From assembly GCA_964649085.1 (NCBI GenBank), contig CAZYPN010000026.1, positions 28,971 through 92,970 of the forward strand: a stretch of DNA of 64,000 nucleotides, in the 5' to 3' direction. The translations under genes were made by a program, and so were the position numbers. Shown here one piece after another: positions 6,046-30,090 of the stretch. The notes under the pieces were generated by a model. That model was not told where the DNA came from and did not search any database. It worked only from the letters and a program-made list of their open reading frames with translations. Source of the DNA: an uncultured Burkholderiales bacterium (GTDB lineage Bacteria; Vulcanimicrobiota; Xenobia; Xenobiales; JADMJV01). Numbering within the stretch: position 1 is the stretch's first letter; every line of letters begins with the position of its first letter.

Positions 6046-6296
6046 GTCTTCCACGGCGGACGGCTGCGGAGCTGAACTCAAGGTGACCTGATCGGTGGCC
6101 CCCAAGGTTTCAGCAGCACCGCCCTTGTCCACGCCCGTTGCCGACTGCCGGTAGATCCGGTGGGGCTGGGAAGGCGTTAGGGGGGACAGCATCTCCGATC
6201 ATTCAGCAGGGCGATGGCAAAGCCTCCAACAGGAGGGATGTCTTAGTATGGACGGTTCTGTCAGTCTGACTGTAATAGTGTTATGCTTGGCATTCG

Positions 6297-6743
6297 ATGA
6301 GGAGGTGTGGGGTGAAGTCCTTCATTCTTGCGTGGTTACTCTCGGCCAGCCTGTGGGCCCAGCCTTCGGGGCCCATCATTCGCCCATTGGGGGCCGATTT
6401 CTATCTGGTTCAATGTAATGCTTATCCGCTCAAGGTCGACGACCGGGTAGTGCTCACCCGTCAGGGTGTCGAGGTGGGGAAAGGCCAGGTCATGCGTCAA
6501 GAGGGTGGCTTTTGCAGCATCCGCCTGCTCGAGGGTCAGGCCCAGCGCTATGACCTGGTGTCGCTGCAGTCTCAGGGGGGCTCTGGCGACCGGGGGCCGG
6601 CGCTGAACCTGCATACGCCACCGGCTTCCAAGCCAGGCGCGGCGGCACGTCCCCGCCAGTCCCAGCAAGCCAGCTATTTCCATTCGCTCGACTTCAGTGG
6701 TCGTGTCTACCAATTGAATACCGGCCAGGTGCTCACACCGTGA
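6297..6743 (+). CDS. Small secreted hypothetical protein (signal peptide)
   Basis: ILAWLLSASLWAQP signal peptide; GAGGAGG overlapping the ATG, so the GTG at 6312 is the more likely start. Confidence 0.5.
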   Translation: MRRCGVKSFILAWLLSASLWAQPSGPIIRPLGADFYLVQCNAYPLKVDDRVVLTRQGVEVGKGQVMRQEGGFCSIRLLEGQAQRYDLVSLQSQGGSGDRGPALNLHTPPASKPGAAARPRQSQQASYFHSLDFSGRVYQLNTGQVLTP

Positions 6744-7111
6744 GGTGGCTGCGCAGCTTCTGGTTGCTGTGTGCGGTGGCCTGGGCTCAACCCTCACCCA
6801 GGCTACCCGAGGGAAACTGGGTGGTCAGCGAAACTTCAGGCAGCACGGTGCAGGGCAACTGGTCCTATCGCGCCGGGGCAGCCGTGATACAGGCCCGCTG
6901 GAATAACGGCACCCAGGCCCTACTTCGTCTCGATTCGTGGGATGGCCAGCGCATACAAGTCTCCCGGCTCGATGCTAGCGGGCCCACCACCGGTCTCAGG
7001 GCCGTGTATTCGGGGGTTTGTCAGGGAACGTTGATTCAGGGGCAGGTCCATTGGTACTGGCCGGGCGGCTGTCGTCAGGGAAAGTGGACGGTTCAGTTGC
7101 CCCAGGTTTGA
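6740..7111 (+). CDS. Small secreted hypothetical protein (signal peptide)
   Basis: GTG start overlapping the upstream stop; FWLLCAVAWAQP signal peptide; tandem with 6297..6743. Confidence 0.5.
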   Translation: MRWLRSFWLLCAVAWAQPSPRLPEGNWVVSETSGSTVQGNWSYRAGAAVIQARWNNGTQALLRLDSWDGQRIQVSRLDASGPTTGLRAVYSGVCQGTLIQGQVHWYWPGGCRQGKWTVQLPQV

Positions 7112-7129
7112 GCTTTTCAGGGTTTCATC

Positions 7130-7909
7130 ATGACTCCCGGCTATGCTGCCCCCATGTTATCGCCGCTCCGCTTCCAATCGCCCACACTCTCGCGCCCGCT
7201 GGCAAGAGCCAATCGGCAGTCCCCGCAGGATCTGTCGACGGCTCCCTCGGACCAGGTCTGCCTCAGTGCGGCCCCAACGCCCAGCCGCACCTCGATCGGA
7301 GTTCGCGCCGGTCAGGCACTGTTGATCGGGTGCAGCCTCGTGGGCGGGGTGGTGGGGTTGGCCTCGGCGGCCCAGGCCCAGCAGGCTCAGGTCCAGGTGC
7401 GTCGCGGAGTGCGCTACGATATGACCGAGCAGCAGCTGAGCGAGCGGGTGCGCAACTCGCTGACGGCCGACCAGATCGGCGAAGGACAGCCCCACTTCAC
7501 GGCCTGGGAGGTCGACTCCAATCAGTCGAGCAAGTGGTATCACAACCCGCGCACGTTGCAGGTGGACGAGCAGCACAGCGGACGCACCGTCACCGAGGGC
7601 GACCCCTTCCGCCAGTGCGCCCGGCAAAGTGCCGACGGCACCTGCCAGACTGCCAAGCCCAATCAGATTCGTTACAGCGTGCTGAGCTGCATCTACCAAA
7701 AGCAGGAAGACGGTCAGCTCTACCGGGTCACCCACAAGTCCTACCAGCACAACTACACCCATAACATGCAGCGCAACGTCTGCGGCGGCCACGAGCTGCG
7801 CTACGACGCCGGTGCCATGACCTTCATGCCTCACCAGGTCAATGCCGAGGGCGATCAGTTGTTCCTCAATCCCGCCAACATTCTTTCGATCGAAAAAGTG
7901 GGCGGCTAG
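7130..7909 (+). CDS. Hypothetical membrane-anchored protein
   Basis: Balanced composition with a TM-like segment LLIGCSLVGGVVGLASAAQA; the overlapping antisense ORF 7157..8023 is Gly/Ala/Leu-rich junk. Confidence 0.45.
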   Translation: MTPGYAAPMLSPLRFQSPTLSRPLARANRQSPQDLSTAPSDQVCLSAAPTPSRTSIGVRAGQALLIGCSLVGGVVGLASAAQAQQAQVQVRRGVRYDMTEQQLSERVRNSLTADQIGEGQPHFTAWEVDSNQSSKWYHNPRTLQVDEQHSGRTVTEGDPFRQCARQSADGTCQTAKPNQIRYSVLSCIYQKQEDGQLYRVTHKSYQHNYTHNMQRNVCGGHELRYDAGAMTFMPHQVNAEGDQLFLNPANILSIEKVGG

Positions 7910-7917
7910 ATAGTCGG

Positions 7918-8442
7918 CTACGCCGACTTCTTCAGCAGTTGCCCAGGAGGCCAAGGAATCACGCCTCCAAGCAGGTCCACCCAGACCACCACTGCCACCC
8001 AGTGAAAGACAACCAGCGGCCACAGCGACCCGAAGCGCAGGTAGTGCAGGCTGTTCAGCAGGGCCAGGGCCAGCGCCAGCGCCAGGAAGCGCGGGTTCTC
8101 AAAGGCTGCCCGTGCCTCTGGCCCGCCTACTCGGCCCAGCAGCGGGTGCCAGAGCACGAATAGCACGGCGCTCAGCGCCACCGCGCCCCAGGGGTTGGGC
8201 GAGCCGGGTGCAGGCAGCAGCAGCACGCGCCAAAAGGCCTCTTCCAGGCAACAGGGCACCAGCCACAGGGCGGCCCAGCGACGCCAGCAGGGGCGACGCG
8301 GAGCCCAATGCAAGAACCGCCCCCGCAGCTTCCAGGCCAGCCCGGCGTAGAACAAGAGTTGCACCAGCAGCCACCCCCAGGCTTCGACGGGGGGCAAGGC
8401 CAGCGACTGCCACAATCGGTCATTTCCCAATGGAGTCAGCAT
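7918..8442 (-). CDS. CPBP-family (CAAX protease / Abi) intramembrane metalloprotease
   Basis: Motif 1 EEAFWR (EExxxR), motif 2 FVLWH (FxxxH), motif 3 HYLRF...HW; multi-TM. Confidence 0.8.
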   Translation of the reverse strand: MLTPLGNDRLWQSLALPPVEAWGWLLVQLLFYAGLAWKLRGRFLHWAPRRPCWRRWAALWLVPCCLEEAFWRVLLLPAPGSPNPWGAVALSAVLFVLWHPLLGRVGGPEARAAFENPRFLALALALALLNSLHYLRFGSLWPLVVFHWVAVVVWVDLLGGVIPWPPGQLLKKSA

Positions 8443-9002
8443 TGGGGGATATGCGAAAACATCCAGGCGTCGTGGCGCTTGCCGTGCAGGGCCAAGCGGT
8501 TGCGCAGCAACCCTTCATACCATGCCCCCGACTTTTCGGCCGCCCGACGCGACGACTCGTTGCCCACCGCCACCACGATTTCCACCCGGCCCAGGCCCAG
8601 TTGCTCGAAGGCCAGCCTTGAGGCCGCCCGAATGCAGCCCACGGCGATCCCCTGGCCCCAGCGGCTGCGGCGCACCCAGTAGCCCAGGTTGGCAAAACCG
8701 TGCTCGCGCGACAACTGGTTCAGCCCGCAGCCGGCCACCAGGTCCCCGCTGCCCGGGTCGAAGACCGCTAGAGAATAGTCCTCGCCGCGCTCCCAGGCGG
8801 GCGGGCGCGAATGGGCATAGCTGATGCTCTCGTCCTGGCTATAGTCGGGGTGACACCAGGGCATCCATTCGCTGAAGCCAGCACCGGCCGACTCGCGGGC
8901 GGCTTCATAGAGAGCCCTCGCGTCCTCGGGTTGATAGGGGCGAAAGAGCAGCTCGACGCGTACTTTGTCGTCGGCCGGCAGCAGCAGTTCGAAAGCGATC
9001 AC
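8436..9002 (-). CDS. GNAT-family N-acetyltransferase (RimJ/RimL-like)
   Basis: Acetyl-CoA-binding region RRSRWGQGIAVGCIRAASRLAFEQLGLGRVEI (Q/RxxGxG/A motif A). Confidence 0.8.
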   Translation of the reverse strand: MIAFELLLPADDKVRVELLFRPYQPEDARALYEAARESAGAGFSEWMPWCHPDYSQDESISYAHSRPPAWERGEDYSLAVFDPGSGDLVAGCGLNQLSREHGFANLGYWVRRSRWGQGIAVGCIRAASRLAFEQLGLGRVEIVVAVGNESSRRAAEKSGAWYEGLLRNRLALHGKRHDAWMFSHIPQC

Positions 9003-9065
9003 GCAGAAATCATCGCCCCCTGCGGCTATCGTGTCAATCGCTTTACAGGCCGTGGCGGGTGAAGG

Positions 9066-9257
9066 TCAGGCCAGGAAGTAAATCCCGTGACCAATATCGT
9101 CTGCAGTGTTGCCGGGGGTAATCAGGCCGGTCGCAGTATCCAGGGTGAACACCTGGTTTCCGGGGAAGTCACGCCCGGGTTCTGCCCACTCGGTCGAGGG
9201 CGTTTCCTGACGAGACCGCCGGATGGAAGGTTGGGAAACGAAGTTGGCCTGGATCAT
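9066..9257 (-). CDS. Small (63 aa) hypothetical protein; first gene of the small-ORF / GNAT / CPBP string
   Basis: AGGAG 7 nt upstream of the ATG; co-directional and tightly spaced with the GNAT and CPBP genes. Confidence 0.45.
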   Translation of the reverse strand: MIQANFVSQPSIRRSRQETPSTEWAEPGRDFPGNQVFTLDTATGLITPGNTADDIGHGIYFLA

Positions 9258-9421
9258 GGTTTGCTCTCCTGGATGTTTTGTCTGTAGGGACCAGCTTACA
9301 CGGCAATCCTGAAAAAGCTCTCAAGGGCACACTCCAAGGGGGGGGCAAACCAGGCAGGATGCTCAAATTGTTTCCAGAATGTAACCAAAGTTACAGACAA
9401 ATGAACTGGGGGGTGGGCAAC

Positions 9422-11281
9422 ATGCGCCGCGGCTTCACCCTTTACGAAGTCCTCGTGTCCATGGCCATCTTGACCTCGGTCATGGTGTTGGCCCTGGTCA
9501 ACGGTCGAACAGCCGAACGGTCGAGCCAGTCTCAGGCCGTAGCCGAGTTGCTGGCTGGCGAGTTTCGTCAGGCCCATCAGCGGGCTCTGGCCGAACATCG
9601 TCCCGTGGCCGTCGTGGTACCTGGTCAGGGCAATTCCTGCCCCCACGCCAGTTCCATTTATCTCATGGCCGGAGAAGAGAAGCCTCGCCCTTCGCGCTCG
9701 GTAGACTTTTCCAAAGAATTTCCGCTGGCCATGGTCAGCGTGGCTCACTGGCCGCTCACCAGCGGCGTCACCACACTCGACCCACCCGCTGGCGTCACTG
9801 GCCTGGATGTGAGTGCCTGGGCCGGACCAGGCTTCAGCGATTATGCCTATGTCTACGACGCATCGGGTCGGCTGCACACCAATCTGTTGCCCAACTTCCA
9901 GGGGGCCTATCATCTGGTGGTCTGCACCGGCCTGGACTATGTGTCCTCAAATCCCACGGTGACCGGAACGGCTCCTCTCAATCATTTTGCCCTGTCCAAG
10001 GTGGCCCAGCCCTATACGGTGCGGCTCACACCTTCGGGAGGCGTCAGCGTGAGCAAGGGGCTGCTGAATGCCAGTCCGGCAGTGGCTCAGCTGGTTGGCA
10101 GTATGAACTCCAGCCCCCCGGCCAGCAAGGTGTTGGTAAGCAACAGTGCCAACCAGAATCCGGTCATCGCCTCGCTCGATTTCGCCCCGCGCCTTCCCGG
10201 CGCCGGCTCCAGCACGGCCTATGTCGACAAGGACGGCTTCCTGTCGTTGAAGGTCACCGCTCAGGATCCTGAAGGCGGGCCGCTGTATATTCGTTGGACG
10301 GCCAACGGTGGTAGCTTCTCCTATCAGGATCGGGTGAGAATGCAGTGGAACGAACAGGCTCAGGCCTGGACCTCCACCTGGGAGTGGCGCCCGCCCCAGG
10401 CTTTTGTGGCCGGACAGCAGTTTGCCCTCACCTGCCAGGTGGCCGACCCGCTAGGGGCGGTGGTCAGCCTGGCAGACCCGGCCCTACAAGGGGTTGAGCC
10501 CGTGGCCGGCGGCAAGATCGGCTACAACGACGCCGCCGGTGGCGCCAAGTTGGTGCTGCAGAACGGCACTCCTGTGGGTGGCTTCGGCGATGCCACCTAC
10601 ATGTTTTTGAACTTCAGTGCCGACGGCAAGCGTGCCGTATGGCGCACCGGTCCTGCCACCGTCACCTGCAATACCGATGGCACCTCACCCCACAGCATTC
10701 CGGGTTCGCACCAGAACCAATCGTGGTCGCCCGACGGCAGCAAGATCCTCTATTGGGATGTGAGCTTTCCCCTGCGGGTGTGTGTGATGAACGCCGACGG
10801 CACCAATAAGACTCCGCTGACCCCCAACAGTTCCAGTTACATGATTTATCAGGAGCCGCGCTGGTCGAACCGAGGCGACCGCATCCTGGTCTATCAAAAC
10901 GGAGCCGCCATGCTGGTCAACCCCGACGGCACGGCGTTGGAGCCGCTACAGGGCGTGCCCGCTCAGGCCTACGGCTTTGACTTTAGCCCCGACAGCACCC
11001 GTATGTGCTACTTTCGAACGGGCACTGGGGGAGGTCTGTGGGTGTGCGACCTGACCGACAACCCCGGCGACGGACTCAATCCCACGCTAAGCAATCACGT
11101 GCAGATATCGACCGACACCCTCTATACGGCCCCACGCTGGTCGCATCGCGGAGACGCCATCGCTTACCACGCGTATTCCAGTGGCTATCGACTCAAGCTG
11201 ATTCATCCTGACGGCAGCGGCGCCGTCAGTCTGGGGTATAATGCCACGGGCAACTACACCCCGCCCAGCTGGTGTCGATAG
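9422..11281 (+). CDS. Prepilin-type N-terminal cleavage/methylation domain protein (pseudopilin) fused to a TolB/PD40-like beta-propeller
   Basis: MRRG|FTLYEVLVSMAIL class III signal peptide with Glu at +5; C-terminal repeats SWSPDGSKILYW / PRWSNRGDRILVY / FDFSPDSTRMCYF / PRWSHRGDAIAYH; GGGGGTG-type SD upstream. Confidence 0.8.
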   Translation: MRRGFTLYEVLVSMAILTSVMVLALVNGRTAERSSQSQAVAELLAGEFRQAHQRALAEHRPVAVVVPGQGNSCPHASSIYLMAGEEKPRPSRSVDFSKEFPLAMVSVAHWPLTSGVTTLDPPAGVTGLDVSAWAGPGFSDYAYVYDASGRLHTNLLPNFQGAYHLVVCTGLDYVSSNPTVTGTAPLNHFALSKVAQPYTVRLTPSGGVSVSKGLLNASPAVAQLVGSMNSSPPASKVLVSNSANQNPVIASLDFAPRLPGAGSSTAYVDKDGFLSLKVTAQDPEGGPLYIRWTANGGSFSYQDRVRMQWNEQAQAWTSTWEWRPPQAFVAGQQFALTCQVADPLGAVVSLADPALQGVEPVAGGKIGYNDAAGGAKLVLQNGTPVGGFGDATYMFLNFSADGKRAVWRTGPATVTCNTDGTSPHSIPGSHQNQSWSPDGSKILYWDVSFPLRVCVMNADGTNKTPLTPNSSSYMIYQEPRWSNRGDRILVYQNGAAMLVNPDGTALEPLQGVPAQAYGFDFSPDSTRMCYFRTGTGGGLWVCDLTDNPGDGLNPTLSNHVQISTDTLYTAPRWSHRGDAIAYHAYSSGYRLKLIHPDGSGAVSLGYNATGNYTPPSWCR

Positions 11282-12068
11282 GTTGTCTGTCCGCGGTCGG
11301 GGTCTCAGCCTGGTCGAGACCCTCATCGCCTTCTTCTTGCTCAGCTGCGGCGTCTTGCTGATCACTCAGCTTTTCCTTTACTCGCTGCGCTACACTCGCC
11401 AGGTGGAGGCCCGCGCCCGAGCCCTGCTGGCGGGCGAACGCGCCTGGCAGCGCCTGCGCAACTGGGCGGCCGAGGTGAATGGTGGTCAGCTCAACTTCTT
11501 GGGCAACTGGGCCACCTATCAAGGGGTAACGGAAACCGACCCCGACGACGCCGAATTCCAGCTGCGCTACCAGGTGGCCGACCAGAACTTGATGTCGCCC
11601 TGTCACGAGCTTGAACGTCTCATTCCGGCCGACCAACAGGGACTGATGGCCCGCTCGGCCAAAAGGGTGTCCATTACGGTCAGCTGGCGTGGGGGCTCGC
11701 TTCAGTTGGCCGGGCTGGTGGAAGAGCCGCCGCGCCAATGGCGGGCCACCAATCCTCTGGTGGTGTCGGGCACCCCGCCCGATCCGGTCAACGCCTCCAA
11801 TCCGGCCAACTTTACGGCAACCGCCTTCGACAGCAACGATGCCGCCATCGAAGATCTTGAGTTTCGCTGGTACGTCGACGCCATGTCCACCTCGGGTACG
11901 GTCACGCCCTCACAGAACGGAAAGGCGGCCACTTTCCTCCCTCAAATCACTCTGTCGGACGGCAGCACCCAGCCCAGCCCTCCAGGCCAGTGCCGGGTGA
12001 AAGTTCGGGCCGTGTATCGCGGCCAGGAGCGCATCGCCCTTTCTACCGTGATGAACGTGGCGCCGTGA
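11241..12068 (+). CDS. Prepilin-type pseudopilin (minor pilin-like)
   Basis: RGRG|LSLVETLIAFFLL with Glu +5; alternative TTG start at 11283 directly after the upstream stop. Confidence 0.7.
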   Translation: MPRATTPRPAGVDRLSVRGRGLSLVETLIAFFLLSCGVLLITQLFLYSLRYTRQVEARARALLAGERAWQRLRNWAAEVNGGQLNFLGNWATYQGVTETDPDDAEFQLRYQVADQNLMSPCHELERLIPADQQGLMARSAKRVSITVSWRGGSLQLAGLVEEPPRQWRATNPLVVSGTPPDPVNASNPANFTATAFDSNDAAIEDLEFRWYVDAMSTSGTVTPSQNGKAATFLPQITLSDGSTQPSPPGQCRVKVRAVYRGQERIALSTVMNVAP

Positions 12069-12610
12069 AGACGCGAGCGCGTGGCATCACCCTGATCGAG
12101 GTCTTGCTCACCTGTCTGCTCTTCAGTGTAGCGCTGGGATTGCTGGCCGGATTTGTCGGCCGGGTGAGCGATGTGATGCGCTTTTCCAGCGGTAAGGACC
12201 GCACGGTTCAGGCGGCCCGTCTGGCCCTGGACCGCATGCAGGACGAACTCTCAGGTGCCATACAGCTCTTGGAGCCCGGATCCAGCCCCACCGACAAGCT
12301 GCAGTTCGTGCGCCTTGACCCTCGTGTGGCCGGTCGCCTGCCCAACCCACTTCCCAGCACGCTTCCCACCAGTTGGGACCCGGTCGACCCTGCCTTCCTG
12401 ACTCAGGTCACCTACGCCCTGGTCGACGACCACCTGGAGCGCACGGCGTTGCACAATGACGGCAGCACCCGAAGTGAAACCCTGCTCGACCAGGTTCAGG
12501 GCCTGCAAACCGAGCGCCTGACCCCAACCAGCGTGCGTCTGACTCTGCTGGTGTGGGACAGTCGCCGCACCACTCGCTGGATCGCCATCGGGGGGATTCG
12601 CCTTCGATGA
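12065..12610 (+). CDS. Prepilin-type pseudopilin (minor pilin-like)
   Basis: GTG start overlapping the upstream stop (GTGA); VKTRARG|ITLIEVLLTCLLF. Confidence 0.7.
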   Translation: MKTRARGITLIEVLLTCLLFSVALGLLAGFVGRVSDVMRFSSGKDRTVQAARLALDRMQDELSGAIQLLEPGSSPTDKLQFVRLDPRVAGRLPNPLPSTLPTSWDPVDPAFLTQVTYALVDDHLERTALHNDGSTRSETLLDQVQGLQTERLTPTSVRLTLLVWDSRRTTRWIAIGGIRLR

Positions 12611-13068
12611 TCCGCCGGGGCTCTTCCATCGTGGCCGTGTTGCTGGTGTTGTCGGCCATTCTGGTGTTGGGCCTGGGGCTGCTGGGCTCGCGGGTGTCGC
12701 AGGTGCGTGCCGCCCAGGACTCGCTGCAGGCCTCGCAGGCCCAGCTTCTGGCCGAAGCGGGTCTGGCCGACGCGCGCATGAAACTGGACAAACGGCTCAG
12801 CTTTCCTCCCAAGTTGGTAGACCAGGATGAGGTCATTTTCAGCTATACCGAAGACCTGCTCGACCCGGCCGGGCAGCGTGTGGGCAGCTATCAGGTGGTG
12901 ATTGACCGAACCTGGGAAAAGGACCCCTACCGCCTGATCCGTGTAACTTCCGAGGGCCTGGTGGGGCCTGTCGAATCACCCAGGACGCGGCGCAAGATCA
13001 GCGCCGAACTCGACTGCGGCGCCAGCCCCACCGAGTGGATCAACTGGATAGACGAAGGGGGGCTGTAA
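12607..13068 (+). CDS. GspK/PilX-like pseudopilin-family protein (no Glu +5)
   Basis: ATG overlapping the upstream stop (ATGA); MIRRGSSIVAVLLVLSAILVLGL N-terminus. Confidence 0.6.
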   Translation: MIRRGSSIVAVLLVLSAILVLGLGLLGSRVSQVRAAQDSLQASQAQLLAEAGLADARMKLDKRLSFPPKLVDQDEVIFSYTEDLLDPAGQRVGSYQVVIDRTWEKDPYRLIRVTSEGLVGPVESPRTRRKISAELDCGASPTEWINWIDEGGL

Positions 13069-13473
13069 CTACCGCTGAAGCGGCTGAATGCTCAGAACCA
13101 GACCGTCTTCGCTCTTCAAGATTTCTCGGTCTTGCTCGATTACTCGATAGACCTTGCGGCCTCGAAAGGCCGCTGGAACCTGAGAATCGTCGAGCAATTC
13201 CCCCTGCGGCGTCTGGCCGGCCCTGGCCGGCCCGTTGAGCTGAACCTGGGTGGTGCGGCGGCGGCTGGGAACGCCGGTAATGGCCCCGCCCGTCGGGGCC
13301 GCGGGTGCTGTGGCCGCGGGAGCCGCCGGGGCCGCCTGAGGTAGGCTGCTCTGGGGAGACTTCGCCGGGGTGGCGGACGTGGCCGAAGCAGCGGGTGTGC
13401 GGGTTGAGGTGGGGGAGGGCTGCGAACTCTGAGCACAGCCGGCCAATAAAAGAGCGAGCAAGAACAGCCGCAT
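13069..13473 (-). CDS. Putative lipoprotein (Pro/Ala/Ser/Thr-rich linker)
   Basis: MRLFLLALLLAGC lipobox signal; the longer track ORF to 13737 overlaps gspF antisense. Confidence 0.45.
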   Translation of the reverse strand: MRLFLLALLLAGCAQSSQPSPTSTRTPAASATSATPAKSPQSSLPQAAPAAPAATAPAAPTGGAITGVPSRRRTTQVQLNGPARAGQTPQGELLDDSQVPAAFRGRKVYRVIEQDREILKSEDGLVLSIQPLQR

Positions 13474-13538
13474 GTCGAGGTTTTCTAGCTCAGAGAGAGT
13501 TGGCCTCCCGAGGAGTGCCAGGGAAAGGAGGTGCTGAT

Positions 13539-14699
13539 GTGCGCGAACGATGGAATGCCTTGAAACGCGGTCTGACCGGCAAGAAGCAGCCAGCCGGTGG
13601 GTGGTTGCCCAGCGGACTGGCCGACCCCGCAATGCGCAGCCATCTGAGCACGCTTGCGGTGGCACCCGGCGAGGTGGCGGCCTTGACCCGCCAGCTGGCC
13701 ACCTTGCTCTCGGGCGGCGTGCCGCTGGTTCAGGCATTGGGCATTCTACGCCAACAGCCCGAGAACCCCGTGCTTGGGGACGTGGTGGCCGACGTCGGCG
13801 CCCAGGTGGGTTCGGGCCATCGCCTATCGGCGGCCCTGAGTCACTACCCCAGGGTCTTTGGCCAGCTGTTTGTCACCATGGTGGCGGTGGGTGAAAACTG
13901 TGGGCAGCTCGACCAGTCGCTGCGCAATCTGGCCGATTGGCTGGAGAAAGACGACGCCCTCAGGCGCAAGGTCAAGGCGGCCATGACCTATCCGCTGATG
14001 GTACTCGGCCTGGCTGTGTTGCTTGCGGTGACGATGTTTGTCACGGTATTGCCCGGCTTTATCACCATCTTCGAGGACCTGCAAACCCCCCTGCCGTTGA
14101 TCACTCAGGTGGTGGTGTGGATCACCAAAGCCTTGCGACACCCCCTGTTCTGGATCGCGGCCGTGGGCCTGGGTGCAGGCCTCAAGGCGGCCCTGCAAAA
14201 GGCCCAGGCCGACAGTCAGCGCAACGCACAACTCTACCGCTGGCTGCTCAACATTCCTGGCCTGGGGGGGCTGCTCTTTCACAGCAGCTGCGCCCGCTAC
14301 TGCGCCACCGTGGGGGTGCTGCTCAATGCCGGCATGGACCTGCGACGCAGTTTGACTTTGGCGGCTGCTGCCAGCGGCAGCCCACTGCTTGAGCAGGATG
14401 CGAAGCAGCTGGTCAATGCCGTCATCCACGGACACGCCGTCGATGACTATATGATGGCCCATCCACAGCTCTACTCTGGCACCATGACTCAGATGGCCGT
14501 AGCCGGCGAAGAGGCCTCGCGCCTGCCCGAGATGCTCACTCGAGCCTCGCGTTTCCACGAACTGGAGGTGGAAGCTCGCATCGAAGCCATCAGCGCGGCG
14601 CTGGAGCCGATTTTGCTCAGCGGGGTGGCGCTTGTGGTGGGCACGGTGCTGGTGGCGATTTTCATTCCCCTCTACGGCATTGTGGCCACCCTGGCTTGA
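13539..14699 (+). CDS. gspF: Type II secretion / type IV pilus platform protein GspF/PilC family
   Basis: Two T2SSF-type halves (ALTRQLATLLSGGVPLVQALGIL...; RYCATVGVLLNAGMDLRRSL...) and 3 TM; GTG start with AGGAGG 8 nt upstream. Confidence 0.85.
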   Translation: MRERWNALKRGLTGKKQPAGGWLPSGLADPAMRSHLSTLAVAPGEVAALTRQLATLLSGGVPLVQALGILRQQPENPVLGDVVADVGAQVGSGHRLSAALSHYPRVFGQLFVTMVAVGENCGQLDQSLRNLADWLEKDDALRRKVKAAMTYPLMVLGLAVLLAVTMFVTVLPGFITIFEDLQTPLPLITQVVVWITKALRHPLFWIAAVGLGAGLKAALQKAQADSQRNAQLYRWLLNIPGLGGLLFHSSCARYCATVGVLLNAGMDLRRSLTLAAAASGSPLLEQDAKQLVNAVIHGHAVDDYMMAHPQLYSGTMTQMAVAGEEASRLPEMLTRASRFHELEVEARIEAISAALEPILLSGVALVVGTVLVAIFIPLYGIVATLA

Positions 14700-14744
14700 T
14701 CGCTCTTTCAGAAGGGTTTCAGCCCGAGGACATAAGGTTGAGGC

Positions 14745-15404
14745 GTGAACATCTCGGCTCACTGTCTGCCCCAACGACCCGACCGCATCGCACGCAAGGC
14801 TCTCGAGGCTCTGGCCCTGGACCCGCAGCAGCATCGGCTGCTGGAGGAGAATCTGGCCAGCTACACTTCCCACCTCCACGATGACTACCAGCAGAGTCTG
14901 GAAACCCTGGAGGGTGGAGACCTGCTGGCCCGGCTGCAGAACGGTTGGGCTCACGGCGAGCATCGTTGGACCGACAAGCTGCGCCGAGATCTCCGCGACC
15001 CTTATTCCGACCAGCAGGTGGGAGAGCGATTTGAAGCCCTCAAAGCTCGTTTCATCGAGGAGGCCCGCAACTATCCCGGCCAGCTCTTCATCGCCGGCAG
15101 CCTGAGCAAGGGGCGTTTCGGGGCCCATTCCGATCTGGACGTGCTGGCCACGGCCTCGCCCGGCTCAATGCCTGCTTCCTCGTGGCAAACGGGCAGCCCG
15201 CAGTTTTTGCTCGATTCCTTTCCGGGCGCCGTGGCTGTGGGCAGCGATGGACAGGACCTGCTCAAGCTGTGGCGCGAGGGCCTGGGCCGCAAGGGCCTGG
15301 AACTTCACGATGACTGGAAAGTGGCGCGCCACACTTACGTTCAGCGCCAGCCCGAACCCATCCCAAAAAGTGGCATGATGTGGAGCTTTGCCGACTTACC
15401 CTGA
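14745..15404 (+). CDS. Nucleotidyltransferase-fold domain protein
   Basis: Minimal NTase motif IAGSLSKGRFGAHSDLDVL (GS-x9-DxD); the antisense ORF 13824..15128 is junk. Confidence 0.5.
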   Translation: MNISAHCLPQRPDRIARKALEALALDPQQHRLLEENLASYTSHLHDDYQQSLETLEGGDLLARLQNGWAHGEHRWTDKLRRDLRDPYSDQQVGERFEALKARFIEEARNYPGQLFIAGSLSKGRFGAHSDLDVLATASPGSMPASSWQTGSPQFLLDSFPGAVAVGSDGQDLLKLWREGLGRKGLELHDDWKVARHTYVQRQPEPIPKSGMMWSFADLP

Positions 15405-15435
15405 GAGGCATCCGGCGAATTTCTGGGCCAGACCA

Positions 15436-16992
15436 CTAAACTTTTGTCTTCCGCCAGTCCTGGTAGGCAAAGAAGCAGTCGAGTCCCATAGGCACAATGG
15501 CCATGCGACAGGTCCAGGCCGGCAGGTCGGCTTCGGGCACCCAGGCGGACCATTCAATATGGTCGGGGTGAAATTCCATCGGGCCCTTCCATTCCAGGCG
15601 AAAGATATGGATCCAGGCCCGTGATCTCGCCCCCTGGTGAAAGTGGCTGCAGACGAACTCGGGGTTGGCCCCAACAATGCCCACCTCGGTCTGCAATACC
15701 CGACGGGCGGCCTCTTCATAGCTCTCGCCACTTTCGACCACGCCGCCCACAAAGACGTCGTGCATGCCCGGAAACAGGTCTTTGGTCGAGGTTCGCCGAT
15801 GCACGAGAACCTCGCCCTGGTCGTTGTAAATCAAGATTTTGACGGCCCGATGCATCAGGTTCTGCTCGCGCATGGCGCTGCGGGCCACGTGGTCCACCAC
15901 TCGATTCTCGCTGTCGACAACTTCCACGGTTTGCTGGCTGACGTCGATGCGTTGATGCGCTTTGGGTGCCTCCTGCTCAGCGGGGTCTGACGGCAGGTTG
16001 ACCTCGCGCAAGAATTCGGCATCGTTCTCGGGCACCGAAGGGTTGATGAACATCCCTGTGCCAAGTTCAAAGCCTGCACTTTTCTGCAATCGGGGCACGA
16101 TGGTGATATACCAATGAAATACACGTCCGCCCAGAATTTCAGCGTGCGACGAGCGCACCACCAGGTTATAGGGTGGGTCGCCCAGGCCATGATAGAGCCG
16201 GGCCAACAACTGTCGCAGCAGAACCGCCAGCTCTTCCAGTTCGGCATCGGTGGTCAGGGCATAGCTGCAACTGTGGCGACGCGGCAGAATCCAAATGGAG
16301 AACGGCGAGAAAGCGGCGTAAGGAACAAAAGCCACAAACTCTTTCGTTTCGCCTAGGATACGGGTGCGCTGACGCAGTTCCATCTCCATTTCATCGCAAA
16401 ATACACAGCGTCCGTGCTGATGATAGTAATGGTTGGCCACTTGCTGTCGGTCCAGCACCTGTCGGGGTGTCACTGGCAGAGCCACCACCTGAGAGTGCGG
16501 ATGTTCCAAGGAGCAACCGGCGGCCTGCCCGTGATTCTTGAAGATCACCACGTGCTCGGTTTCGGGCTGCAACCAGAAGGTACGATAGCGCTGGCGCCAG
16601 GCCTTCAGTACGAGGCTCAGGTGGCTGGGCACCATCAGGGCCAGCGTGGTGTTATGCAAGGGAGACTCGGCCACCACTTCGTGATGGCCAACCCCCTGCA
16701 GCCACCGGGCCAGTTCCTCGCCCCGCAACTCGGGGCGAGCCCCGGGGCTGACCACCGGAAAACGGTTGGGAAAACTGCGCACCAACCAGCCCGAAGTTTC
16801 ATCGCTGAAGCACAGCGTTTCTCCCGGAGTGCGGGAGTCGTGCCCCGGACAAAACGGGCACTGGCCCTTCCAGGTAGGTCGCTCATGCGTCCACTCGCCG
16901 ACCTCGCGGTGAAAGTCCTCGGGCCTGCGTGCCCTTTCGGGAGCAAAGACGACCCACTCTCCAGTGGCCACACTCAGGCGCAGTTCAGACAT
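15436..16992 (-). CDS. GalT-type (HIT superfamily branch) nucleotidyltransferase/phosphorylase fused to a C-terminal Nudix hydrolase
   Basis: Zn motif CPFCPG, active-site HPHSQ (GalT HPHGQ), then Nudix box GGVVESGESYEEAARRVLQTEVG. Confidence 0.8.
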   Translation of the reverse strand: MSELRLSVATGEWVVFAPERARRPEDFHREVGEWTHERPTWKGQCPFCPGHDSRTPGETLCFSDETSGWLVRSFPNRFPVVSPGARPELRGEELARWLQGVGHHEVVAESPLHNTTLALMVPSHLSLVLKAWRQRYRTFWLQPETEHVVIFKNHGQAAGCSLEHPHSQVVALPVTPRQVLDRQQVANHYYHQHGRCVFCDEMEMELRQRTRILGETKEFVAFVPYAAFSPFSIWILPRRHSCSYALTTDAELEELAVLLRQLLARLYHGLGDPPYNLVVRSSHAEILGGRVFHWYITIVPRLQKSAGFELGTGMFINPSVPENDAEFLREVNLPSDPAEQEAPKAHQRIDVSQQTVEVVDSENRVVDHVARSAMREQNLMHRAVKILIYNDQGEVLVHRRTSTKDLFPGMHDVFVGGVVESGESYEEAARRVLQTEVGIVGANPEFVCSHFHQGARSRAWIHIFRLEWKGPMEFHPDHIEWSAWVPEADLPAWTCRMAIVPMGLDCFFAYQDWRKTKV

Positions 16993-17095
16993 CCCCTGGT
17001 TTTCCCGCTATGGGCGGCCGAAGCCTGGCTGGACACCAGCGCTCAGGTCAACGATTCGGGCAGGGGTTTCCCCTTGCCATCTGTAATCCTGGGCC

Positions 17096-17872
17096 GTGCG
17101 CTATTGGTACCTGGTGCTGCTGGTCCTGCTGGCTCTGCCGGTGGCCTCACAAGGCCCCGACGACCTTAACGTATTGCGTTCCGCCTGCCAGTTTTTCGCC
17201 GGCTCTCCGCTCACCGCCGACGAGTGGGCCCGCATCGAAGCCGATGCCCGCAAGGATTTCGCCACTCAACCCGAGCAGTCCAGGGCCCAGCTGCAGGAGC
17301 TTCGCCAGCTGGGTTCCACGCTCTCCCAGATCACCGAGCCCGGGGCCCTGATCGAGGTGCGTCAGGCAGGGCTTTACTCGTTTTACCAGCTGCGCCAGTC
17401 GGGTCAGCACGACCTCAGTGCAGAAATTGTGCTGCAGCGTGCCCGTCCGTTGGCGGTCGACCCGGCCCATCAGGTGCTGCTGCTCGAAGCCGACCTCGAC
17501 GGGGTCATGGCCTATCTCAGTCTCCTGCGTCAAAGCCAGGGCGGGGCCCCCTGGTCTGCGCACGAGGCTCAGCAGTTCCGTAGCCAGACCGTCCAGAATT
17601 TCGCCCGACTGCCCGATGCTTCCAAAGCTTTCTTGCTGGGGGGGCAAATCTACTGGAGCGTGATCTCGGCCCAGATGCAGCGCCTTGGCCAGCAACGCCA
17701 GGCCGAGGTGCAGCAACGGCTGGCCCAACAGCAGCAGGTGCCGCTCTCGATGGATGCCTACCAGGCCCTCAGCAACCTCAGCCGCAGCCAGCACCTCACC
17801 ACCATGAACATTCTGGAGAACATGGGCGGCAGCGGCGACTACTGGGAAATGGTCGAGCGTCCCTCGTGGTGA
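17096..17872 (+). CDS. Secreted hypothetical protein (Gln-rich)
   Basis: Signal peptide YLVLLVLLALPVASQ; GTG start; antisense ORF 17147..17929 rejected on composition. Confidence 0.5.
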   Translation: MRYWYLVLLVLLALPVASQGPDDLNVLRSACQFFAGSPLTADEWARIEADARKDFATQPEQSRAQLQELRQLGSTLSQITEPGALIEVRQAGLYSFYQLRQSGQHDLSAEIVLQRARPLAVDPAHQVLLLEADLDGVMAYLSLLRQSQGGAPWSAHEAQQFRSQTVQNFARLPDASKAFLLGGQIYWSVISAQMQRLGQQRQAEVQQRLAQQQQVPLSMDAYQALSNLSRSQHLTTMNILENMGGSGDYWEMVERPSW

Positions 17873-17923
17873 GCCTGGAATAGGCTGCGCTCGAAGGCGA
17901 CTCTGGGGGGCGGAGGTCAGGAC

Positions 17924-19750
17924 ATGCAACGAACCTTAGGTTGGCTTCTCTCGCTGTGTATCACAGCCATGGCACAACCCATCCCCTACGCCAGTCAGCG
18001 TCCCGGTGGGGCTCTCAGCGACCCCCTGGAACAGCCACGCGACCTTACCGGGCGCTCGGTGAAAACCCCCCGGGTCCGCGCCATTCACGGCCGTGAATTG
18101 CCCGGGAGCAGCGGTTGGCTCATGGAGCACGACCCCTGGCTGGCCTACCAGATGGGGCGCGACCTCGGGCTACGCGAGTTCAGCCGGGCCGACGGCGCCT
18201 TTGGCGACGCCGGTCGCCTGGGGGGCAAAGTGCTCGACGATCAGGCCACGCCTATGATGAGCCGCGATCACGTCAACAGTTGCGTGGCCTGCCACAACGT
18301 CCCCTGGCGCGACATGGGGGCGGGCATCACCATCCAGAAAAACGCCGCCACCGGCCGTAACACGCCCCACGGCTTTGGCGGCGGTATCGTGGAAATGATC
18401 GGCCAGGAGATTCGCTCCCAGCTTATGGCCCAGGCCGATCGCAACGGTAATGGCTGGATCGAGCTCAGCGAGGCCAGCGGCCCGGCCCGGGTCCAGCCGG
18501 TATCGGGCGAGTTCCTCGACTACGGCTTTTTCGACGATCGCAACGGCGACGGCCGCCCCGATCTGAATCGAATCGTTTTTGTGTGCTACCTCGACGCCCA
18601 GGGGCGGCGTATCCCCTGGGCCCGCAGCCTGAACGATGCGGGAGTGGCCGGATACAACCTCGAGGTTCAGGTTTTTGGCCACGGTCAGCGCGACCGCCTC
18701 GGCCACGGGGGGCTCAGCGCCACCTTGCGGGCGGTCAGTTCCAACGCCTGGGACATGCACTCGGGGCTGCAGGCCCACGACCCCACCGCCTCGCGCGAAA
18801 GCCAGGCCGGACTGACCGGCTTCAGCCTGGCGGGCTGCTGGCAGTTCTTCACCGGTTTCACGCGCGATGCCGGCACCCGCAAAACTCCCAGCGGCATCAG
18901 CCTTGACGATCCCGATCGCGACGGAGTGGTGGAAGAAATTTCCCAGGGCGATCTCGACCTGCTCGAGTTCAGTCTGCTCAATCACCCGGCCCCGGCCGAA
19001 AAGGTCGACGCCCGATTTCAACGGGGGCAGAGCCATTTCCAGGCCATTGGCTGCACCGACTGCCATCGCAGCAGTTGGTCAGTGCGCCAGGACCGCCGCT
19101 TTTTCGAGCTAAAAACCAGCTACGTGCAGGGCCGGCTTCAAGGTCGCCTGCAGCGGCTGCACGGCGGCCCGGCCCGCTTCGAAGGTCTCTACAGCGATTT
19201 CCGTCACCACGATCTCGGCGAGGCCTTCTACGAAGTGCAATACGACGGTAGCCGCAACCGCAGCTTCCGCACCAGCCCGCTCTGGGGCGTGGGCAGCACG
19301 GCTCCTTATGGTCACGATGGGGCCAGCCTCAGCCTGGAAGAAGTCATTGTGCGCCACGGAGGCGAGGCGCTGGCCTCGCGCCAGCGCTTTGAACAGCTGG
19401 CCCCCGAGCAGCAGGACGAACTGGTGCACTTCCTGCGCGGGTTGACCCTCTACAGCAGCGAAACCCTGCCCTGTGACGTGAACGGCGACGGACACATCTC
19501 TCAGCACTTCGAAGTGGCCGGACAGGATACCGGCACCGAGTGCTTCAATCCCGAATGGCTTTTCGCCACGCCCGGGCGTATCGAAGGCATGGTCAGCGAC
19601 GGCGAGGGCGGGCGCATGCTCAGCAAGGCGCTGACCAACCTGCGCCAGGCCTACCGACTCGATTTACCGGCCCTGCGCGACCGCGACCACGATGGATTTG
19701 CCGACATCCTGGAACTACAACGATATCTGAGTGCACGGAGGAAACCATGA
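17924..19750 (+). CDS. Di-haem cytochrome c peroxidase-like protein (DUF1111 / MauG-CCP-like)
   Basis: Two CxxCH haem motifs (CVACH, CTDCH), PLWGVGSTAPYGHDG motif, signal peptide, C-terminal DVNGDGHIS calcium-binding-like loop. Confidence 0.75.
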   Translation: MQRTLGWLLSLCITAMAQPIPYASQRPGGALSDPLEQPRDLTGRSVKTPRVRAIHGRELPGSSGWLMEHDPWLAYQMGRDLGLREFSRADGAFGDAGRLGGKVLDDQATPMMSRDHVNSCVACHNVPWRDMGAGITIQKNAATGRNTPHGFGGGIVEMIGQEIRSQLMAQADRNGNGWIELSEASGPARVQPVSGEFLDYGFFDDRNGDGRPDLNRIVFVCYLDAQGRRIPWARSLNDAGVAGYNLEVQVFGHGQRDRLGHGGLSATLRAVSSNAWDMHSGLQAHDPTASRESQAGLTGFSLAGCWQFFTGFTRDAGTRKTPSGISLDDPDRDGVVEEISQGDLDLLEFSLLNHPAPAEKVDARFQRGQSHFQAIGCTDCHRSSWSVRQDRRFFELKTSYVQGRLQGRLQRLHGGPARFEGLYSDFRHHDLGEAFYEVQYDGSRNRSFRTSPLWGVGSTAPYGHDGASLSLEEVIVRHGGEALASRQRFEQLAPEQQDELVHFLRGLTLYSSETLPCDVNGDGHISQHFEVAGQDTGTECFNPEWLFATPGRIEGMVSDGEGGRMLSKALTNLRQAYRLDLPALRDRDHDGFADILELQRYLSARRKP

Positions 19751-25721: not shown

Positions 25722-25752
25722 GAGCTCGACCCATCCGGGTCGGGCTCTTTTC
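25722..25752 (+). terminator. Putative rho-independent terminator (11-bp stem with one mismatch, 4-nt loop, TTTT)
   Basis: gagctcgaccc-atcc-gggtcgggctc followed by ttttc, immediately after the LysM-P60 stop. Confidence 0.45.
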
Positions 25753-30024: not shown

Positions 30025-30090
30025 GTTCCAACCCCCTTTGGGGGTAGCTACGCCTTTCACGGCTTGTCTCCTACGGGTATAATCAACCCC

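Follow-up and report, generated by a model that had tools for sequence, protein, structure and literature searches.

Minor pilins, together with the propeller protein PilY1, prime the type IVa pilus (T4aP) and occupy its tip, and one of them, PilX, lacks the glutamate at position 5 (Glu5) (PMC7541494). [quoted passage not shown] Modular pilins present grafted binding modules, and Dataset S1 of Raynaud et al. 2021 contains the domain combinations IPR012902-IPR011659 (four proteins) and IPR012902-IPR022346-IPR011659 (two proteins); this N_methyl-GspH-PD40 architecture is listed there without comment, discussion or characterisation (PMC8179133). The protein g1, encoded in the 64-kb stretch of DNA analysed here (hereafter, the window), possesses exactly this architecture and is therefore less exceptional than the preliminary description had implied; its size of 619 aa lies far above that of a normal minor pilin and its propeller is real, but large modular pilins were already known as a class. 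The propeller-minor-pilin design is common among uncultured bacteria. Of the 150 top-ranking representatives of clusters at 50% identity, about 80 are related to g1 over its full length, and the family is thus far larger than the six catalogued proteins. To our knowledge, this design has been studied by nobody.

The pilin-type gene set consists of four co-oriented and tightly coupled genes with prepilin-type N-termini (window positions 9422-13068, + strand), which are followed by a convergent lipoprotein gene and then by a GspF/PilC platform gene. The individual features are given below, with a slash at the predicted cleavage sites:

9422-11281, + strand: g1, 619 aa, N-terminus MRRG/FTLYE
11283 (TTG)-12068, + strand: g2, 261 aa, N-terminus ...GRG/LSLVE
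12065 (GTG)-12610, + strand: g3, 181 aa, N-terminus ...ARG/ITLIE
12607 (ATG)-13068, + strand: g4, 153 aa, N-terminus MIRRG/SSIVA, without Glu5
13069-13473, - strand: lipoprotein gene, 134 aa, lipobox MRLFLLALLLAG/C
13539-14699, + strand: gspF, 386 aa, two T2SSF domains

The four consecutive genes with prepilin signal peptides had been correctly recognised, as had the 4-nt overlaps at the g2/g3 (GTGA) and g3/g4 (ATGA) junctions. The term 'directly abutting' used for g1 and g2 is approximate only, since these genes are separated by a 1-nt spacer (TAG-g-TTG), or overlap by 41 nt if g2 starts at the ATG at 11241; both start choices (TTG 11283 and ATG 11241) were made by gene callers on related contigs. 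An alternative start of g1 (ATG 9401) is located seven codons upstream, and the orthologues begin at MRRGF. Because some ten independent loci have conserved all four pilin genes, with identities of 25-45%, g1 to g4 can be regarded as real genes and not as chance ORFs.

The first gene had been interpreted as a pilin fused to a TolB/PD40-like propeller, and structure prediction bears this out. According to its AF2 model, g1 is a modular GspH/FimU-type minor pilin with the following parts:

N-terminus: class III signal peptide MRRG/FTLYE, recognised by Pfam N_methyl and NCBIfam TIGR02532
Residues 7-58: alpha-1 helix of about 50 residues (AF2 model)
To about residue 235: GspH-like beta head (structure model, PDB matches)
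Residues ~245-352: Ig-like beta-sandwich
Residues ~357-619: six-bladed PD40/TolB-like propeller

The scores of g1 lie above the cut-offs for Pfam N_methyl (21.4 versus 21.2 bits), as had been anticipated, and for TIGR02532 (23.1 versus 16.3), while the equally anticipated match to Pfam PD40 is present but, at 20.7, falls just under its cut-off of 20.9. Between residues 398 and 577, the [WF]S-x-[DR]-G repeat occurs five times and the DGT motif three times. The full-length model has a pLDDT of 86.6; its C-terminal region (pLDDT mostly >90) does model as a propeller, with TolB (E 3e-12 to 1e-10) and YWTD six-bladed propellers as top PDB matches. When the N-terminal domain was modelled separately (pLDDT 88.3), the ten best PDB matches of the pilin module were exclusively FimU (4ipu, 4ipv), EpsH (2qv8, 4dq9) and XcpH (9a1f, an XcpGHIJK model), with match probabilities of 0.95-1.0 that then fall to ≤0.06. 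Pfam GspH is matched by nine of the 14 g1 family members (best E 7.9e-10). Judged by identity levels, the propeller is the fastest-evolving domain of g1 (21-25%, compared with 31-39% in the pilin and Ig portions), and in two g1 paralogues encoded on a single contig it can no longer be aligned, in contrast to those portions.

Gene order, the Glu5 pattern and sub-threshold profile matches suggest that g2, g3 and g4 occupy the PilV/GspI, PilW/GspJ and PilX/GspK positions, respectively. The N_methyl motif is plain in the g2 and g3 sequences, with Pfam N_methyl matches under the cut-off in both. The g2 protein matches NCBIfam PilV below the cut-off (1e-7 over profile positions 2-138 of 139), is alignable end to end with seven orthologues (tblastn 1e-32 for that of locus L003), and carries at its C-terminus an additional conserved domain (~110 aa), the motifs of which mark it as all-beta; it may be Ig-like. 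Matches of g3 to Pfam T2SSJ (E 0.11) and, over the same region, to the GspJ chain 5vtm_W (E 1.4) are weak. NCBIfam GspK is matched by the N-terminus of g4 only (1e-4; 22 bits versus a cut-off of 130); the absence of the glutamate that had been noted in this protein extends to all seven orthologues, and the C-terminal INWxDxG motif is conserved. These traits point to g4 as a candidate for the PilX/GspK/ComGG cap position, a pilin-like protein without Glu5.

The platform gene does follow a convergent lipoprotein gene, as originally described, and encodes two T2SSF domains (Pfam T2SSF 1.9e-54). Its best start is the GTG at 13539 behind an AGGAGG box, and the resulting 386 aa is the length called on related contigs. 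The protein belongs to a short subfamily without T2SSF_N, the closest relatives of which comprise 332-390 aa and lack PF28597; its NCBIfam scores for GspF (245 bits) and PilC (234 bits) are both below the equivalog cut-offs. The gene is not 'lone', as it had been called, but a fixed fifth member of the cassette in relatives. Four pilins and their own T2SSF gene recur in all related metagenomic loci examined but one, several of which are labelled Eremiobacterota. The order H-propeller pilin, ~265-aa, ~185-aa and ~160-aa pilins, T2SSF is found in L003, L010, L012, L001, L015 and twice in L014, a single contig with two copies of the cassette; in L006 this order is truncated by the end of the contig, in L011 T2SSF lies beside the pilins but on the opposite strand, and in L007 and L009 T2SSF shares a nearby operon with the three small pilins. 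The five cassette genes travel together across distant genomes.

In the genome studied here, gspF is set apart from the pilin genes by the convergent lipoprotein gene, a point against the explanation proposed below. It directly abuts the g4 stop codon, and its product, with a lipobox (LLAG/C) and a Pro/Ala/Ser-rich linker, has no family match in Pfam or NCBIfam profile searches. The gene is present in L001, L015 and L016 as it is in the window, and absent between g4 and T2SSF in L003, L010 and L012; it is an insertion confined to the window and these close relatives. Elsewhere in the window, a second pilin-like trio is located at 45320-47728 (- strand).

As initially stated for the ATPase and the major pilin, none of the T2SSE ATPase, secretin, prepilin peptidase and GFTLxE-type major pilin genes was found within the 64-kb window by tblastn, a motif scan and Pfam scans of about 50 ORFs; the window on its own thus does not establish a complete machine for this genome. 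We nevertheless consider it likely that g1 to g4 form an H-I-J-K type initiation/tip complex of a type IV filament, and that the adjacent GspF/PilC paralogue is its inner-membrane assembly platform. By analogy with XcpH-IJK and FimU-PilVWX, a prepilin peptidase encoded elsewhere would cleave g1 to g4 after the Gly, and g4, g3 and g2 would assemble into an apical trimer. The g1 pilin module would dock beneath this trimer and join it to a major pilin encoded elsewhere, and an ATPase, likewise encoded elsewhere, would then extend the filament; in L003, a GspE/PilB-type ATPase gene is located directly upstream of the cassette. The Ig-like domain may serve as a spacer, roughly 4 nm in length, and position the propeller next to the tip or above it. 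The propeller itself, by analogy probably a binding module, would determine the binding specificity, be it for a surface, for a polymer or for a protein ligand. While the propeller of the 'propeller-tipped' pilin is indeed present, its placement at the tip is a geometric guess, because GspH-type subunits occupy the lowest position of the tip complex and, in characterised systems, the GspH/FimU type is the base adapter of the I-J-K trimer and does not form its apex. Taken together, the pilins, the fusion, the gspF gene and the lack of an ATPase or major pilin in view stand as first interpreted, and the tip placement, the 'lone' gspF and the exceptionality are corrected.

We lean towards an extracellular type IVa-like pilus over a periplasmic type II secretion endopilus because of the affinities to PilV, FimU and small PilX proteins, because the gene tables of the related loci contain no secretin gene, and because type IV pili have been reported for a cultured Eremiobacterota species, the diderm Vulcanimicrobium alpinus, whose phototactic surface motility is attributed to these pili by its authors (PMC9758169). 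The endopilus, a short filament on which the propeller of the GspH-type adapter would recruit a folded substrate or push it towards a secretin instead of being displayed on a pilus, is in our view a rather unlikely alternative. In its favour, the similarity of the g1 pilin module to EpsH and XcpH of the T2SS is almost as high as that to FimU, g1 orthologues match Pfam GspH, and GspF and GspE are the top models for the platform and the L003 ATPase, respectively, although the scores are close in both cases (481 bits for GspE and 460 for PilB with the ATPase). TolB-type propellers are periplasmic protein-binding modules, and an outer membrane is present in the one cultured Eremiobacterota species (PMC9758169). 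Neither the related-locus gene tables (up to ~10 kb on each side, less at contig ends) nor the scanned window ORFs contain a Secretin Pfam entry, however, and GspC/L/M-like genes were not recognised in them; g2 matches PilV and not GspI, and g4, with its 153 aa, lacks the alpha-domain typical of GspK. T2SS operons normally include a GspG-like major pseudopilin, and the cassette has none.

The fully retained and well-conserved GspH/FimU head fold, and the linkage of g1 to three more pilins and a platform gene in all related loci examined but one, make it improbable that g1 stays unpolymerised, with its signal peptide and helix as an inner-membrane anchor and its Ig and propeller domains as a tethered periplasmic TolB-like binding protein, e.g., in envelope maintenance or signalling. 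Such a role would suit TolB as the closest structural match of the C-terminal domain and the histidine kinase and response-regulator (BTAD) genes that flank the cassette in L007, L009, L010 and L014, but neither g1 nor any of its full-length relatives contains the N-terminal domain of TolB (PF04052); the lipoprotein gene inside the cluster loosely recalls TolB-Pal, but its product lacks an OmpA/Pal-like domain and is of restricted occurrence. That the cluster is the decaying and no longer functional rest of a pilus or secretion locus from which the ATPase and major pilin genes have disappeared, as the missing genes, the interrupting lipoprotein gene and the inversion of the whole 7.7-kb segment relative to a close relative might be read, is very improbable, given that all five ORFs are intact with 4-nt start/stop overlaps and Shine-Dalgarno boxes, that the five proteins are 88-97% identical to those of a relative with only ~83% DNA identity, and that minor-pilin cassettes apart from the core machine are normal in T4aP systems (PMC7541494).

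Among the known systems, TolB provides the best structural match of the g1 propeller (E 3e-12), a six-bladed PD40 propeller; the NCBIfam propeller_TolB model is matched only locally (1.7e-5; 24 bits versus a cut-off of 343), and g1 has neither the TolB N-terminal domain nor a Sec signal peptide nor a tol-pal context; the similarity is confined to the fold of the domain. GspH-I-J-K/XcpHIJK (PDB 9a1f) correspond to g1 to g4 in gene order and in roles, with a GspF-type platform, the EpsH/XcpH-like head fold of g1 and a last subunit without Glu5 in common. In contrast to the T2SS, where GspH has ~140-190 aa and no extra module and GspK ~300 aa and an alpha-domain, g1 has 619 aa and g4 only 153 aa, the cassette lacks gspG, gspD and gspC/L/M, and all equivalog scores are far under their cut-offs.

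With the modular type IV pilins, such as S. sanguinis PilB (pilin plus vWA) and PilC (pilin plus lectin) and ETEC CofB (PMC8179133), g1 shares the class III signal peptide and pilin module, a linker, and a bulky predicted ligand-binding module of a type not specific to type IV filaments. It differs from them in that its carrier is specifically a GspH/FimU-type adapter, in its extra Ig-like spacer, and in that its I-type neighbour (g2) also carries an extra domain. The FimU-PilV-PilW-PilX-PilY1 sets of P. aeruginosa and M. xanthus (PMC7541494) likewise comprise four minor pilins in the same order, the last without Glu5, and a beta-propeller protein in the complex; a genome may contain several alternative sets (L014 carries two), away from the core machine and with two-component regulators nearby. 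The PilY1 propeller (IPR008707) belongs to a separate non-pilin protein that is exported by Sec and docks on PilX via a C-terminal strand; no PilY1 family was found in the Pfam tables for the related loci. In the cassette, by contrast, the FimU-type pilin itself bears the propeller, which is six-bladed, of the PD40 type and covalently attached. Each cassette also has a PilC/GspF paralogue of its own, unlike the minor-pilin operons of T4aP.

The window holds four consecutive minor pilin genes on the + strand (g1 to g4), followed, beyond a convergent lipoprotein gene, by a gene for a platform protein of the GspF/PilC type (gspF); g1-g4 and the platform gene are here collectively referred to as the cassette. 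In the following list, a slash marks the predicted processing site.

9422-11281, + strand, g1: 619 aa, prepilin-type N-terminus MRRG/FTLYEVLVSMAIL
11283-12068, + strand, g2: 261 aa, prepilin-type N-terminus MSVRGRG/LSLVETLIAFFLL
12065-12610, + strand, g3: 181 aa, prepilin-type N-terminus MKTRARG/ITLIEVLLTCLLF
12607-13068, + strand, g4: 153 aa, N-terminus MIRRG/SSIVAVLLVLSAIL, no Glu at position +5
13069-13473, - strand, lipoprotein gene: 134 aa, lipobox LLAG/C, touching the g4 stop codon
13539-14699, + strand, gspF: 386 aa, best start a GTG at 13539, seven bases 3' of an AGGAGG box

The overlaps that the preliminary description had claimed, GTGA between g2 and g3 and ATGA between g3 and g4, are present. 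The g1 reading frame ends with a TAG codon (11279-11281), and a TTG codon one base further is taken as the start of g2; on sibling contigs, gene callers are split between this TTG and an ATG at 11241 (a 41-nt overlap with g1), and they sometimes place the start of g1 at 9401, seven codons earlier. Our conclusions are unaffected by these alternative starts. The length of 386 aa for the gspF product is the same as that called on related contigs. The lipoprotein gene is placed between g4 and gspF in convergent orientation, and no base separates its stop codon from that of g4. It occurs only in the window and in three closely related loci, L001, L015 and L016 (numbers of this type denote related metagenomic loci); its product comprises a Pro/Ala/Ser-rich linker and about 50 aa of C-terminal sequence, and gave no family match. 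No family match was obtained either for a 219-aa ORF directly 3' of gspF (14745-15404, + strand), which is kept in L001 and L015. Neither promoter-like nor terminator-like sites exceeded the shuffled expectation, and an Rfam search of the window gave no match.

The proteins g1, g2 and g3 each begin with a class III signal peptide, in which a basic leader and a Gly residue precede about 20 hydrophobic residues with a Glu at position +5 (MRRG/FTLYE, GRG/LSLVE and ARG/ITLIE). As type IV pilin-like proteins, they are predicted to be cleaved by a prepilin peptidase, to be N-methylated and to be incorporated into a filament. The two Pfam families that the preliminary description had named for g1 fared differently: N_methyl is matched (21.4 bits; cut-off 21.2), as is the NCBIfam model TIGR02532 (23.1 bits; cut-off 16.3), and PD40 is just missed (20.7 bits; cut-off 20.9). 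The best profile match of g2 is PilV (1e-7, below the cut-off), covering 137 of the 139 profile positions, and g3 gives weak T2SSJ/GspJ signals. Leader and hydrophobic helix are likewise present in g4, from which Glu5 is absent as in PilX/GspK-type subunits, and none of its seven orthologues has a Glu at +5. A classification of g4 as GspK proper would be in keeping with the missing Glu5 and with its being encoded last in the operon, the only two features that it has in common with GspK; its 153 aa are set against roughly 300 aa for GspK, in which an alpha-domain interrupts the pilin fold, and its match to the GspK profile NF037980 is confined to the N-terminus (residues 4-64; 1e-4; 22 bits against a cut-off of 130), and we reject this identity. 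Profile searches with g2, g3 and g4 against PDB sequences returned chance-level or N-terminal matches only, and a word-indexed profile search with g4 yielded just five relatives. The orthologues of all three proteins align over their full length with 25-43% identity, and with the proteins of locus L003 as queries, each window gene is found by tblastn at 1e-20 to 1e-32.

The full-length AlphaFold2 model of g1, computed from a 19-sequence alignment of full-length relatives, has a mean pLDDT of 86.6; residues 1-239, modelled separately, reached a pLDDT of 88.3 and a pTM of 0.81. Both models exhibit the type IV pilin layout of a long alpha-1 helix and a beta head, with a continuous helix from residue 7 to 58 and a beta-rich head extending to about residue 235 in the full-length model. 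There follows (about residues 245-352) an all-beta domain with the family motif DP(D/E)G(D/G)PL...W; this modelled domain we call Ig-like, a putative assignment made solely from its secondary structure and the family motif. The remainder, from about residue 357 to the C-terminus, is a propeller with pLDDT values mostly between 90 and 96 for its blocks, and when g1 was compared with the PDB by Foldseek, TolB ranked first (E 3e-12 to 1e-10), followed by the YWTD propellers of LRP4, LRP6 and megalin. TolB and YWTD propellers are six-bladed, and six blades are deduced for g1 as well, since the strand count and five [WF]S-x-[DR]-G repeats agree. The beta-propeller that the preliminary description had read from the sequence is thereby borne out: it had named a failure of this region to model as a propeller as the observation that would speak against it, and the region does model as one.

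The Foldseek search with residues 1-239 identifies the type of pilin that carries the propeller. Ranks 1-10 are all occupied by FimU, EpsH or XcpH (probability 0.95-1.0; TM-score by target 0.52-0.66), and the probability is 0.06 or lower from rank 11 onwards; the structures matched by the head are FimU of the P. aeruginosa type IVa pilus (T4aP), EpsH of the V. cholerae type II secretion system (T2SS), and XcpH in the XcpGHIJK model. Furthermore, the Pfam family GspH (PF12019) is matched by nine of the 14 aligned g1 orthologues (best E 7.9e-10); g1 itself gave no match to it at E ≤ 1. Taken together, the top matches restricted to FimU, EpsH and XcpH and the GspH matches of the orthologues assign the pilin module of g1 to the H (adapter) type. 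A canonical GspH would share this head, and the TIGR01708 gspH model is matched by residues 3-69 only, with 22.9 bits against a cut-off of 80. Typical GspH/FimU/FimT proteins consist of a single module of about 130-190 aa, whereas in g1, with its 619 aa, the pilin head is followed by an Ig-like and a propeller module; because of these extra modules, we regard it as a modular derivative of the GspH/FimU family and not as a typical member. An identity as TolB, to which the first rank in the full-length structural search might point, is rejected on several grounds: PF04052 is absent from g1 and from its full-length relatives P0001-P0020 and is present in the true TolB matches lower down, the TIGR02800 model is matched with 24 bits against a cut-off of 343, the neighboring genes encode pilins, and the signal peptide is of class III and not a Sec signal peptide.

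The gspF product contains two T2SSF (PF00482) domains (183 bits; 1.9e-54), which identifies it as a platform protein of the GspF/PilC type. Its matches to the GspF model (245 bits; cut-off 424) and the PilC model (234 bits; cut-off 700) are nearly equal, and both are below the equivalog cut-offs. The window protein and its relatives P0232-P0246, the GspF/PilC proteins linked to cassettes of this type, constitute a subfamily of short proteins (332-390 aa) without a recorded T2SSF_N domain (PF28597), a domain that is present in ordinary PilC/GspF matches of at least 400 aa. P0232 is 100% identical to the window protein.

A word-indexed search with g1 detected about 20 full-length relatives, all of them metagenomic and almost all unnamed. 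In an exhaustive profile search, 83 of the 150 best cluster representatives (50% identity) have a length of 550-760 aa; nearly all of these 83 are matched from end to end, and most of them begin with a (G/A)-F-(T/S)-L-x-E motif. Scores exceed 450 bits throughout these best 150 representatives, and the family is at least as large as what is counted here. The 57,376 proteins found at E ≤ 1e-30 in the same search represent PD40 propellers in general and not the pilin-propeller family. Among 46 matches to a pattern used to scan a genome collection there was no relative, and another such scan returned only an unrelated propeller from a Steroidobacteraceae MAG.

The order of a propeller pilin of about 620 aa, pilins of about 265, 185 and 160 aa, and a T2SSF protein recurs in L003, L010 and L012; it is interrupted by the contig end in L006 and complemented by the extra lipoprotein gene in L001 and L015. 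The T2SSF gene is adjacent on the opposite strand in L011, while in L007 and L009 the three small pilin genes are grouped with the T2SSF gene in an operon of their own, at a distance of a few kb; L008 is the only related locus examined that shows no T2SSF gene. A 547-aa ATPase of the GspE/PilB type (GspE 481 bits; PilB 460 bits) is encoded just upstream of the cassette in L003, and a BTAD-domain response regulator and a histidine kinase flank the cassette in L007, L009, L010 and L014. Immediately 5' of the propeller-pilin gene, and overlapping it in some lineages, lies a gene whose product, a bitopic membrane protein of 160-190 aa, shows little conservation and is not a pilin (L003, 9462-10004; L006, 9432-10004; L008, 9387-9866; L012, 9399-9920); it has no counterpart in the window.

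Two complete propeller-pilin cassettes (6202-9915 and 13914-19386) are present on the 39-kb contig L014 from an NCBI MAG, and their gene orders differ: in one, H-I-J-K is divergent from F, and the other reads F-I-J-K-H. In their pilin and Ig parts the two propeller pilins are 25% identical; their C-terminal halves can no longer be aligned. Across the family, too, the propeller is the least conserved part, with 21-25% identity as compared with 31-39% for the helix, the head and the Ig domain. Between the two L014 cassettes lie a histidine kinase gene and a response regulator gene, and a separate 191-aa ORF on this contig contains only T2SSF_N. A T2SSF protein of L014 is named from 'Candidatus Eremiobacteraeota bacterium', and the available taxonomic labels (the record name 'Xenobiales', an Eremiobacterota partial protein, and the L014 MAG) all point to Eremiobacterota.

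The statement of the preliminary description that no ATPase is in view holds for the entire window: no T2SSE ATPase, secretin or prepilin peptidase was detected there, either by tblastn with the L003 ATPase as query or in Pfam scans that covered about 50 ORFs. According to a motif scan and the Pfam results, the only further prepilins of the window belong to a second pilin-like trio at 45320-47728 on the - strand, which resembles the second cluster of L003 (T2SSF-255-1016-165).

47195-47728, - strand: variant prepilin, probable start MAGRKRAGG/VSLLLE
46594-47211, - strand: canonical prepilin, MWGPISRRRG/FNLIE
45320-46897, - strand: protein of about 435 aa, probable start MRRRGLAIVPVLL, with PilX_N (4.4e-6) and DUF7305 (1.4e-8) matches

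Neither a platform nor an ATPase gene adjoins this trio. Directly upstream of it, the region 47996-51223 (- strand) encodes a protein of 1075 aa that contains a bacterial Tubulin_2 domain (4.3e-69), and further along the same strand follow a 252-aa ORF and the genes for a FecR-domain protein and a Ser/Thr kinase; beside the trio on the opposite strand (43380-45314, + strand) lies a 644-aa ORF with a strongly proline-rich C-terminal half (PPPP and PAP runs) and no Pfam match. Elsewhere (25751-31092), the longest reading of an 863-aa + strand ORF, whose C-terminal part contains a PDDEXK_2 transposase-like nuclease domain, shares about 480 nt with a 1077-aa CHASE2-adenylate/guanylate cyclase ORF on the - strand; the true start of at least one of them must give a shorter ORF.

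In a blastn comparison with L001 (DNA about 83-88% identical), the 7.7-kb segment 9350-17030 lies inverted with respect to the flanks on either side; it contains the pilin genes, gspF, the 219-aa ORF and a GalT-NUDIX gene. A programmed invertible element was considered; since no inverted repeats were found flanking the segment, we treat the inversion as an ordinary rearrangement.

Minor pilins determine when a type IV filament is started and what its tip can bind. Because the anatomy of g1-g4 matches that of H-I-J-K initiation complexes, we propose, by inference, that g4, g3 and g2 would form the apex, and that the pilin module of g1 would dock beneath it and recruit a major pilin encoded elsewhere, with the GspF paralogue serving as the platform. 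The Ig-like domain may act as a spacer that positions the propeller at the side of the apex or above it, and there the propeller could bind a ligand. A role as specificity module would be consistent with the faster divergence of the propeller and with its exchange between paralogous cassettes. We lean towards an extracellular pilus rather than a secretion endopilus, given the PilV affinity of g2, the small, PilX/ComGG-like g4, the absence of secretin and GspG genes from the gene tables of the related loci, and the type IV pili reported for the sole cultured Eremiobacterota species, to which its phototactic surface motility is ascribed by the authors (PMC9758169).

Bolder, and in our estimation rather unlikely, is the proposal that in this lineage a FimU/GspH-type adapter pilin took over the job that PilY1, a separate propeller adhesin, has in classical type IVa pili, and that propeller variants are inherited as a 'tip kit' of four minor pilins and a matched PilC/GspF paralogue, with the platform recognizing its own initiation complex. 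Such recognition would be implied by co-inheritance of the platform with the kit; in the literature covered, we found no demonstration of it for type IV filaments. If the proposal were true, filaments with exchangeable, rapidly evolving propeller tips could be built by one motor and one major pilin used in common.

The pilin-propeller family, large and uncharacterised, joins a PD40 propeller to an H-type adapter and comes with three partner pilins and a platform protein of its own. It provides a natural experiment on how an initiation complex accommodates bulky modules, whether a platform protein discriminates between initiation complexes, and what little-studied phyla of soil and peat, among them the Eremiobacterota, attach to or take up. 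It also permits a correction of annotation: in the source databases most family members are nameless, and one bears the label 'TolB protein'.

Among known systems, the T4aP offers a parallel: FimU-PilV-PilW-PilX and the propeller protein PilY1 prime its extension and remain at the tip, and PilX is without Glu5 (PMC7541494). A K-type subunit needs to be completed by a terminal beta-strand, provided in cis or by PilY1, before I-J recognition (PMC13533445). In the cassette, g1 has a C-terminal strand with a conserved W-x-R, and g4 a strand with the sequence INWxDxG. PilY1/PilC tip adhesins are Sec-exported, are not pilins and bear a modified propeller at the C-terminus. Although g1 shares a propeller with PilY1, its identification as a PilY1/PilC tip adhesin is rejected, as it has no PilY1-family match (IPR008707/PF05567) and possesses a class III signal peptide; its likeness to PilY1 would be one of functional analogy only. 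The Verru_Chthon cassette proteins A-D (TIGR02596-TIGR02600) are dismissed, since their models gave only N-terminal matches of 9-25 bits against cut-offs of 70-332. By joining an N-terminal pilin module to a domain not specific to type IV filaments (the PD40 propeller), g1 fits the definition of a modular pilin, a class that is well established. We take the combination IPR012902-IPR011659 to stand for N_methyl-PD40 and IPR012902-IPR022346-IPR011659 for N_methyl-GspH-PD40. Both are already listed, with four and two proteins, respectively, in Dataset S1 of the survey of modular pilins by Raynaud et al. (2021, PMC8179133), which comprises more than 1,200 proteins and 264 architectures. As our literature search returned no paper naming both pilin and PD40, the pilin-propeller family can be considered catalogued but undescribed. 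What the present analysis adds to the catalogue entry is that the carrier pilin is of the H type, that a putative Ig-like spacer is present, that the five genes make up a fixed cassette including a platform paralogue of its own, that more than one cassette can occur in a genome, that the family is large, and that it is associated with the Eremiobacterota.
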